From the IMG/VR virus record IMGVR_UViG_3300045988_155865, positions 60,944-124,943 of that record: a stretch of DNA of 64,000 nt; one strand, given 5' to 3'. Source of the stretch: a virus. Within the stretch, counting starts at the first letter, position 1; each line of letters begins with the position of its first letter. The notes under the pieces were generated by a model. The model was not told the DNA's origin. It made no database searches and saw only the letters and a program-made list of their open reading frames with translations. Both the position numbers and the translations under genes were made by a program. Below, in pieces: positions 42,888 through 43,814 of this stretch.

Positions 42888-43814
42888 TTATTCAGCTACC
42901 TCCTTTGCTTTAACTAAATATTTATCACTTAATAACATTTCTAATGTTATATTATCTCGTTCCCAATAAGGAATTCTAACCAATGGAATATGATGAGATA
43001 AAGCATATTCATTTTTTATTTTATCTCTTTTTTGAGTTAATTCTAACTATTCCTTAGTATCCCAACCTGAATTTTGTGTTTTGAAATGTTGAATCCCATC
43101 AAATTCAATTAAACGTATTTTATCACTATTTGGATAAAGAATAAAATCAAAACGTCCTATTCCATTACCAACATTCAAATCTTTAAAATAACACTGGTCA
43201 TATAAATAAGGAATATTAGCATTATTCAGAATATCTATAATATTTTTCTCTCCTAAAGATCCTCTTAAACAACCGCAAGATTTAGTTTGATTTGTAATTA
43301 AATTAGAACTATACACTTCAATTTCATTACCACAATCACATTTACATTTCCATTTAGCATGTCTGTTTACTATTTTATAAGATATAGCAACTAATTTTCC
43401 AAATCTTTGTCCAGTTAAATCATTGATGGCATATGGTCTTGGCTATGTTATTTTTTCATATAAAAGACAACCGCAAGATTGAATATTACCAGCTCGTAAA
43501 TGATAGCCACTAACTTCTTTAATATTTCCACAATCACACTGGCATATCCAATAGACATGGCCATATTTATCTTTTTTCCCTTTCTTTAATACAGTTAATC
43601 TTCCAAACTTTTTTCCAATCATCTAATGCTAAAGACATTCTCCACAATTTTGCATTTTTTTTAGCCTATCTGCTCGAATACTTTTAACATTACCACAATT
43701 TAAACATTTACATTTCCAAAATGTTTTTTTAGTTTTTTGGGTTTTTTCCTCGTCTAATTCAATTACTTGTAATTGATTTATAATCTAATTACTATAATCT
43801 TTTCTCGTTTTCAA
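42888..43814 (-). CDS. homing-endonuclease-like protein: three Zn-ribbon repeats (LxGxxFGxLxV...WxCxCDCGN...SCGC) + C-terminal Vsr/DUF559-like PD-(D/E)xK domain; 6 in-frame TAG codons
   Basis: ORF 43047..43316 is a fragment. Manual in-frame translation from the TTG after AGGAGG through to TAA gives 308 aa with RFDFILYPNSDKIRLIEFDGIQH; paralogous to plus-strand gene 49764..50680. Confidence 0.6.

Follow-up and report, generated by a model that had tools for sequence, protein, structure and literature searches.

Two genes of a gut phage that decodes the stop codon TAG as glutamine (Gln) are likely to be intact, free-standing homing endonuclease genes (HEGs) of a single family. They lie in a 64,000-nucleotide stretch of IMG/VR virus record IMGVR_UViG_3300045988_155865 (positions 60,944 to 124,943 of that record), here called the window, with positions counted from its first letter. 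The window is AT-rich (28-35% GC) and coded almost wholly on the minus strand. We refer to the two genes as HEG1 and HEG2:

42888..43814, minus strand: HEG1 coding sequence, 308 amino acids (aa), TTG start, TAA stop, 5 in-frame TAG codons
49763..50680, plus strand: HEG2 coding sequence, 305 aa, TTG start, TAA stop, 9 in-frame TAG codons (60% of its Gln codons)

An earlier note on this DNA had proposed two paralogous, HEG-like open reading frames (ORFs) on opposite strands, hidden from standard ORF calling, and both exist as described. Some details change: the note had placed 6-12 TAGs in each gene, where the counts are 5 and 9, and it had the end of HEG2 right and the start, at 49764, one base off. 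In HEG1 the TAGs are codons 10, 62, 64, 124 and 256, with a sixth upstream of the start and within the stop-to-stop ORF 42888..43871. The HEG2 frame is free of TAA and TGA before its stop and has no internal Met. Under the standard code, HEG1 falls into fragments of 89, 59 and 31 aa, and in the HEG2 region every in-frame ORF stays below 30 aa. Public assemblies of the same species accordingly show a 1,150-bp gap in the gene calls at HEG2, and call HEG1 only from the internal Met54 (protein P0121). Routine annotation misses such genes, and the mobile-element content of recoded phages is therefore likely to be undercounted.

TAG encodes glutamine in this phage, and HEG1 and HEG2 are code-15 genes, because TAG falls in glutamine columns, presumed essential genes carry it and relatives encode tRNA(CUA). 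One HEG2 TAG occupies the glutamine position of the motif DGxQH, where 68 of 68 homologues have Q; at a second HEG2 TAG this holds for 48 of 68, and at the first HEG1 TAG for 49 of 68. Many ORFs of the window grow longer when TAG is read as sense: 6003-9890 extends to 1,296 codons (2 TAG) and 13791-15581 to 597 codons (9 TAG). The minus-strand genes at 6003..9890, 13791..15581, 17179..18708, 3597..5423 and 28359..30368 bear 2-9 TAGs each; by eye from the translations, without a family search, these are genes of replication and nucleotide metabolism, namely Pol III alpha, a DHH/RecJ-like protein, DnaB, an anaerobic ribonucleotide reductase (NrdD) and GyrB, and genes read by eye as primase, DNA ligase and GyrA are TAG-free. 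Recoding in this phage is not limited to structural and lysis genes. Genes for tRNA(CUA), labelled 'Pyl' by ARAGORN, occur in 10 related loci (L006, L021, L022, L028, L030, L042, L057, L066, L084 and L091), and L028 also encodes a tmRNA.

Were the TAGs nonsense mutations, the two genes would be decaying pseudogenes, as their fragmentation in standard-code ORF calling and the lack of HEG2 in public gene calls might suggest. This explanation is effectively refuted. TAG is the sole interruption, with no TAA, TGA or frameshift in 305-308 codons at 28-30% GC, and it sits at conserved Gln columns. The TAGs, and no other stops, are conserved in all carriers, seven for HEG1 (the window and six same-species contigs) and six for HEG2 (the window, four of these contigs and IMGVR_UViG_3300045988_163776, the closest relative in IMG/VR, which is ~96% identical to the window over 26 kb and is called 163776 below). 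The genes read as DnaB, Pol III alpha and NrdD carry TAG too, and all residues that are invariant in the protein family are kept.

HEG1 and HEG2 are 41% identical over their full length (E 3e-61), and the window holds no third copy. Each protein consists of three Cys-rich modules followed by a C-terminal Vsr-like nuclease domain. Five of the six modules follow the pattern CxCxCG...(17-18 aa)...CGC, including the three canonical ones of HEG2; module 1 of HEG1 is a variant, with CxCxxCG...CGxC. The modules span ~55-65 residues, are predicted to form three strands and a short helix, and contain five invariant Cys (CxCxC...CxC). Three tandem modules had been correctly predicted, but their designation as Zn ribbons remains tentative, given this pattern and a structural neighbour in BFVD named 'treble clef zinc finger'. 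The modules presumably bind zinc. In an alignment of 70 sequences, both proteins keep 36 of 36 invariant family columns, among them 15 Cys and a D/E/D/H/D set, so that the two ORFs are no product of chance; the invariant or near-invariant residues of the nuclease are D225, E235, D237, H241 and D264 in HEG2 numbering. A separate observation concerns locus L108 (Logan ERR12330675), in which the otherwise invariant CGC of HEG2 module 1 bears a G56D substitution that may be an early sign of decay.

The nuclease domain has the predicted element order alpha-beta-beta-beta-alpha-beta. An invariant D lies on strand 2 (RFDF), an E-x-D on strand 3 (LIEFDG or LIEYDG), an invariant H four residues after the E-x-D, and a D..K pair in the next helix. 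An AF2 model is available for P0121, which corresponds to HEG1 residues 54-308 with one substitution (pLDDT 90.9), and its catalytic domain has the fold of the Vsr endonuclease. The C-terminal domain had been called Vsr-like before, and the possibility that the proteins resemble no nuclease fold at all falls away. Judging by the model, the domain is Vsr-like with a restriction-endonuclease-like fold, and its likeness to Vsr and to I-Bth0305I is at the level of the fold only.

Library searches place the proteins less sharply. In Pfam and NCBIfam only weak matches were obtained, to DUF2726 and PDDEXK_9, with PF08011 at E 0.085. DUF2726 (PF10881, PD-(D/E)XK clan) scores 22.2 bits with HEG2 and 13.2 bits with HEG1, below the gathering threshold of 24.7 bits, and the homologue P0016 passes it at 24.8 bits; these sub-threshold scores suggest that the HEG proteins are related to DUF2726. 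Among phage families, PHROG 374 ('HNH endonuclease') matches at E 1e-49 to 1e-57, with its best-scoring stretches in the Cys-rich modules, and PHROG 559 (also 'HNH endonuclease') at E 1e-31 to 2e-34 across the whole protein; PHROG 9084 ('homing endonuclease', E 2e-18 to 4e-24) and PHROG 7140 ('intron encoded nuclease') match via the C-terminal domain. We reject the 'HNH endonuclease' label, as no HNH family appears in Pfam even at E up to 1 and the nuclease domain is Vsr-like. A canonical PD-(D/E)XK homing endonuclease of the I-Ssp6803I type is rejected as well, the strand-3 motif being E-x-D, with Lys missing at the K position.

The family comprises at least 7,600 clusters at 90% identity, with a variable number of repeats. 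In INPHARED, 633 records contain the modules and 22 match HEG2 over 80% or more of its length, at <31% identity among the matches listed. Cultured phages carry the same architecture under the names 'homing endonuclease', 'VSR endonuclease', 'restriction enzyme' and 'DUF2726', and structural neighbours in BFVD and INPHARED are named homing, VSR or restriction endonuclease. The gene family is thus abundant and already annotated in phages, and is not new; a literature search found no biochemical study of this nuclease architecture.

Both genes lie between other genes, and the Rfam scan of the window gave no intron; they are therefore free-standing, and association with an intron or intein was considered and rejected on these grounds. 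No close phage relative was found by DNA in INPHARED. Comparison with 163776 gives the following picture of their mobility:

42911..43897, minus strand: HEG1 cassette, 987 bp, present in the window and missing in 163776 (blastn break points)
43880..46500, minus strand: diverged flank by HEG1, comprising the RNA ligase, a 129-aa ORF and the exonuclease; 200-bp windows 64-90% identical, mostly 64-79%, against a background of ~96%
49657..50762, plus strand: HEG2 cassette, a tract of zero differences to 163776 over 1,106 bp (mismatch list)

The HEG1 indel is clean. Position 43898 of the window corresponds to 14397 of the relative, and 42910 to 14396. In 163776, which supplies the empty-site sequence for HEG1, the end of the RNA ligase gene overlaps a 53-aa ORF through TAATG, and the junction reads ...GAAGCACAAGAAGTAGAGGAGGCAATTAAATAATGCAATTTACAAAAGCAG... 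The cassette inserts exactly at this overlap and brings a hairpin, a ribosome-binding site and the HEG. The region of 64-79% identity begins exactly at HEG1; protein identities drop to 75% (RNA ligase), 36% (129-aa ORF) and 60% (exonuclease), against 95-97% in neighbouring genes, and beyond the flank identity returns to ~96%. We regard the diverged flank as a candidate tract of co-conversion or exchange, bounded by HEG1.

The same junction is occupied by HEGs in other phages too. The nearest HEG1 relative in databases, P0124 (56% identity, 8 TAG in 300 codons), is found in another phage at this RNA ligase/NADAR junction, with the same leader GAGGAGGTAtATATAAAA and a hairpin whose stem differs yet pairs. 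Family members only 37-40% identical are found at the HEG1 junction in L005, L014 and L042, others directly precede the RNA ligase in seven loci, and a HEG adjoins the RNA ligase gene in ten related loci. Across related loci, family members occupy at least 10 distinct positions on both strands. The indel, the zero-difference tract of HEG2 and the many sites of homologues support insertions over ancient syntenic genes, the latter being an outcome that the earlier note had named as counting against its proposal of a free-standing mobile HEG.

For HEG2, the zero-difference tract starts just inside the left hairpin of the cassette and covers, besides the ORF, its 5' region and 3' hairpin as well as the final 54 bp of a vault-like gene. 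Its flanks differ from 163776 at 21 of 528 positions (4%) on one side and 15 of 131 (11%) on the other, and at 4% divergence a stretch of 1,106 bp would be free of differences with a chance of ~2e-20. This comparison indicates that the HEG2 cassette was recently exchanged. In more distant relatives, no HEG follows the vault-like gene. The nearest HEG2 relative, P0002 (60% identity, 7 TAG), lies in another phage on the strand opposite to its neighbours and adjoins a sigma-70 gene. That sigma-70 factor (r1_2, r2, r3 and r4) is seen in L116 and L117 at 2546-3457 and in L118 at 156-1067; a sigma-70 factor of its own bears on the timing of transcription in the clade. Next to HEG2 in the window is a YqeY-like gene (48959..49564, minus strand), intact at 199 aa. 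In 163776 (L081, 9100-9400) it has lost ~390 bp internally and is frameshifted, with a C-terminal ORF of 58 aa left, a deletion that may be collateral damage beside a homing site.

These patterns also bear on whether the proteins might serve the phage, for instance in the degradation of host or competitor DNA, in superinfection exclusion or in transcriptional control, and be moved by ordinary recombination without being selfish elements. HEG-derived DNA-binding domains have been co-opted for other roles (Barth et al., PMC10055350), names such as 'restriction enzyme', 'regulatory protein' and 'AP2 domain protein' are common among structural neighbours, and the genes are intact in 7/7 carriers of HEG1 and 6/6 of HEG2. 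We nevertheless find such a role quite improbable in view of the sporadic distribution over many sites in both orientations, the occupation of one junction by HEGs just 56% or 37-40% identical, the zero-difference tract of HEG2 inside diverged flanks, the position of a HEG exactly at the edge of an exchanged segment, and the invariance of the active-site residues across the family.

Each homing endonuclease gene travels as a cassette with its own expression signals, of which we recognise the following:

43826..43830, minus strand: HEG1 Shine-Dalgarno GGAGG (AGGAGG counting the last hairpin base), TTG start 11 nt downstream, read from the sequence
43831..43874, minus strand: HEG1 hairpin with a 20-22 bp stem, after the RNA ligase stop and ahead of the HEG1 ribosome-binding site; -26 kcal/mol, z -5.1
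42886..42890, minus strand: TAATG stop/start overlap of HEG1 with the downstream 53-aa ORF (42727..42888), also in L115
49732..49751, plus strand: HEG2 5' motif TTTTATATAATAATGAAAGG, with a -10-like TATAAT at 49737-49742, running into the Shine-Dalgarno AAAGGAG at 49747-49753
49626..49652, no strand assigned: left-edge hairpin of the HEG2 cassette, 10 bp; on the minus strand terminator-like and followed by a T-run
50667..50697, no strand assigned: 3' hairpin, 14 bp, perfect, overlapping the HEG2 stop codon; z -7.9 and -6.9

The HEG1 hairpin ends one base ahead of GGAGG, belongs to the inserted cassette and is missing in 163776. The orthologous cassette of L115 has the leader GAGGAGGTAtATATAAAA, as in HEG1, ahead of an ATG start, and its hairpin has a changed stem sequence with the pairing retained. 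At the other end, the last codons of HEG1 restore, for the 53-aa ORF that follows, both a Shine-Dalgarno sequence and the TAATG overlap. Besides its strong hairpin, the HEG1 cassette carries a ribosome-binding site and, in the stop/start overlap, a means of restoring the expression of the gene that comes next.

The HEG2 cassette lies on the opposite strand and is bracketed by hairpins, as had been noticed before; the one at 50667..50697 is terminator-like on the minus strand, 12 nt past the convergent major-vault-protein-like gene. The TTG start of HEG2 is 9 nt downstream of AAAGGAG. The conserved motif TTTTATATAATAATGAAAGG occurs once in the window. A search of 1.96 Mb of related loci, allowing up to 3 mismatches, gave 25 matches, 14 of which immediately precede HEG-family genes; these genes come from four lineages. 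We infer that it is a cassette-borne promoter and ribosome-binding site; a role as a general phage promoter is ruled out by its single copy in the window and its tie to HEG cassettes in relatives. The HEG2 Shine-Dalgarno is also predicted to pair over a long range with 49682-49693 (z -3.2), and L015 has a similar hairpin. In phage T4, hairpins and own promoters limit the expression of HEGs, and sequestration of their ribosome-binding sites is known; the HEG2 arrangement, as a predicted pairing only, resembles this sequestration.

With these parts in place, we can outline how the two genes may spread. By analogy with other phage homing endonucleases, the Cys-rich modules would read an extended DNA site. 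Standard homing would then follow: in a mixed infection, the enzyme would cut related phage genomes that lack the HEG, close to the site at which its own gene is inserted, and repair from the HEG-bearing genome would copy in the cassette together with flanking sequence.

How TAG is distributed among genes bears on when such nucleases could be made. The genes around HEG1 and HEG2 are the following, where the TAG-free block means 43880-58309:

43880-45286, minus strand: RNA ligase, TAG-free block
45600-46421, minus strand: RNase_T-type exonuclease, TAG-free block
39625, 41467 and 46481, minus strand: metallophosphoesterases, the one at 41467 carrying 1 TAG
47234-48073, minus strand: RlaP-type nucleotidyltransferase, TAG-free block
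50709-53210, minus strand: major-vault-protein-like protein, 825 aa, shoulder and repeat domains, TAG-free block
53332..53724 (stop-to-stop ORF 53278..53724), plus strand: holin, phrog_13712 at E 9e-30, no Pfam match, 2 TAG
56723-58309, minus strand: DUF2828/DUF7788 protein, TAG-free block
40361-40978, minus strand: KTI12/AAA_33 kinase, just outside the block (37951-42830)
42219-42677, minus strand: NADAR protein, the ORF holding the domain carrying 2 TAG

An SLH-domain protein also lies within the TAG-free block and a Band_7 protein within 37951-42830; the stretch 37951-58309 as a whole encodes more than one SLH-domain protein. From 37951 to 58309, minus-strand genes are TAG-free apart from HEG1, the metallophosphoesterase at 41467 (1) and the NADAR ORF (2), and the set looks like one for RNA repair or host takeover. 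A homologue of the vault protein is in itself unusual in a phage. The holin, between the vault-like and SLH-domain genes, is besides the HEGs the only TAG-bearing gene in 43880-58309; lying 2.6 kb from HEG2 on the same strand, it also makes inexact the earlier note's claim that HEG2 is the only sizeable plus-strand gene among its neighbours. Elsewhere in the window, the minus-strand gene 22706..23731, with 5 TAG, encodes a protein that has a transmembrane segment at its N-terminus and continues through a long coiled coil to a C-terminal GIY-YIG nuclease domain (PF01541, E 4.6e-10).

TAG accounts for 11.4% of Gln codons over the 59 other genes of the window, and for 20.3% in the 30 genes that use it. 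HEG2, at 9 of 15 (0.60), exceeds both the genes as a whole (0.114; p 8e-6) and the TAG-bearing ones (p 9e-4), and its 2.95 TAGs per 100 codons is the highest density of any sizeable gene in the window. The local contrast is stark: none of the 147 Gln codons in the twelve other called genes of 43880-58309 is TAG, whereas the two HEGs use it at 14 of 32 (Fisher p 2e-12). Among related phages, TAG occurs in 13 of 15 HEG lineages, but 54% of 957 other genes lack it (p 1.7e-4), and the mean TAG share is 0.24 in the HEG lineages against 0.10 in those 957 genes. The HEGs thus belong to the TAG-permissive class of genes, grouped with the holin and set off from the twelve TAG-free genes nearby. HEG1 has its first TAG at codon 10 and HEG2 at codon 24, and full-length nuclease can therefore be made only under TAG suppression. 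Two nucleases and a holin in an otherwise TAG-free 14-kb block provide a test case for the gating of costly genes by stop recoding.

Several results weigh against taking the two genes as homing endonucleases under amber control. (i) Sequence searches of the PDB, with a single protein and with a 69-sequence profile, gave no meaningful match, and Pfam and NCBIfam hold no model above cut-off for HEG1 or HEG2, so that the Pfam comparison recommended by the earlier note yielded the sub-threshold DUF2726 scores and no family assignment. (ii) The EDxHD family is defined by E170, D196, N208, H213 and D222 of I-Bth0305I (PDB 3R3P; Taylor et al. 2011, PMC3239194), and the residue taken as the first E of this motif is kept in HEG1 (SLGE) and the family consensus, whereas HEG2 has V there. 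(iii) With the vault-like neighbour as query, no HEG2-less allele was found among close relatives in IMG/VR and JGI metagenomes; besides one HEG2-bearing near relative, the search returned only relatives of 41-67% identity with other gene order. (iv) No suppressor tRNA(CUA) is encoded in the 64-kb window or in ~10 kb past its high-coordinate end, with ~90 kb of the genome outside the search; this region encodes tRNA-Leu(UAA) alone (58543..58619, minus strand). (v) The TAG share of HEG1, 5 of 17 Gln codons, is ordinary for a TAG-bearing gene (p 0.25). (vi) Compared with 439 TAG-bearing genes, the excess in the 15 HEG lineages is not significant (p 0.085). (vii) Replication genes are often TAG-bearing, and TAG is no simple mark of late genes.

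The last three points equally favour a view in which the genes are homing endonucleases and their TAGs a neutral by-product of long residence in code-15 phages, with no selected timing device: TAG would be merely another Gln codon wherever early, suppressor-independent translation is unneeded. The swapping of TAG and CAA at homologous Gln positions between HEG2 and P0002 points the same way, and we give this view slightly less than an even chance. It sits uneasily with the TAG share of HEG2, which is above even that of TAG-bearing genes, with the predominance of TAG among HEG lineages, with the density of 7-9 TAG per 300 codons in all the closest lineages, and with the place of both HEGs amid strictly TAG-avoiding genes; its consequence is also unchanged, since no suppression means no protein. 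The earlier suggestion that the TAGs could restrict expression to the recoded state accordingly stands in that the full-length protein needs suppression either way; across lineages, the TAG comparison does not show selection for this gating. The description of amber-dense selfish elements as unusual was overstated, with TAG in 13 of 15 lineages of this family in the clade and the gating idea already in Borges et al.

Starting again from the preferred reading of HEG1 and HEG2 as mobile homing endonuclease genes, one may ask whether the TAGs, the -10/Shine-Dalgarno motif and the hairpins near the ribosome-binding sites together make up a portable timing device carried from site to site, with suppression perhaps confined to late infection. 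We consider this rather doubtful. If true, amber-dense lineages would be code-locked and would spread only among TAG-recoded phages, and they would be inert in standard-code phages and hosts, the genetic code acting as a firewall that shapes the flow of selfish elements.

Known systems offer three comparisons. The first is I-Bth0305I, in whose family the free-standing T4-type Hef has been placed (PMC3239194). The invariant Asp, His and Asp of the HEGs are plausible counterparts of its D196, H213 and D222, and in both cases the nuclease is phage-borne and C-terminal to a modular DNA-binding region, and can be free-standing, as in Hef. HEG1 and HEG2 differ in having no detectable sequence similarity to I-Bth0305I, in having three Cys-rich modules instead of NUMOD/HTH elements (which leaves the assignment of the catalytic domain unaffected), in a spacer of 23 residues from the His to the last Asp, compared with 9, and in being TAG-coded and not intronic.

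The second comparison is with the T4-type seg and mob HEGs and with the pattern described by Barth et al. (PMC10055350), in which phage HEGs lie at boundaries of genetic exchange and their DNA-binding regions are typically repeated zinc fingers arranged as 'beads on a string'. HEG1 and HEG2 are likewise intergenic between conserved genes, present or absent among close relatives, adjacent to diverged or exchanged flanks, and equipped with a repetitive array of modules. The nucleases in those systems are GIY-YIG, HNH or T5orf172, whereas here they are Vsr-like, and stop-codon recoding plays no part there.

The third comparison is with the TGA-recoded Agate phages, in which the group I intron endonuclease in an early gene is preferentially recoded, and for which Borges et al. 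proposed that in-frame stops block the homing endonuclease until late infection (bioRxiv 10.1101/2021.08.26.457843). In both cases a homing endonuclease among early standard-code genes is enriched in the reassigned stop. The Agate gene is intron-encoded and uses TGA for Trp, whereas the present genes are free-standing and use TAG for Gln, belong to another nuclease family and phage clade, occur as two paralogues and come with evidence of mobility from close relatives. The gating idea is therefore not new; the same logic reappears with TAG as Gln, free-standing genes and a different nuclease class. What we add, by comparing sequences, is direct evidence of the recent mobility of amber-coded HEGs.

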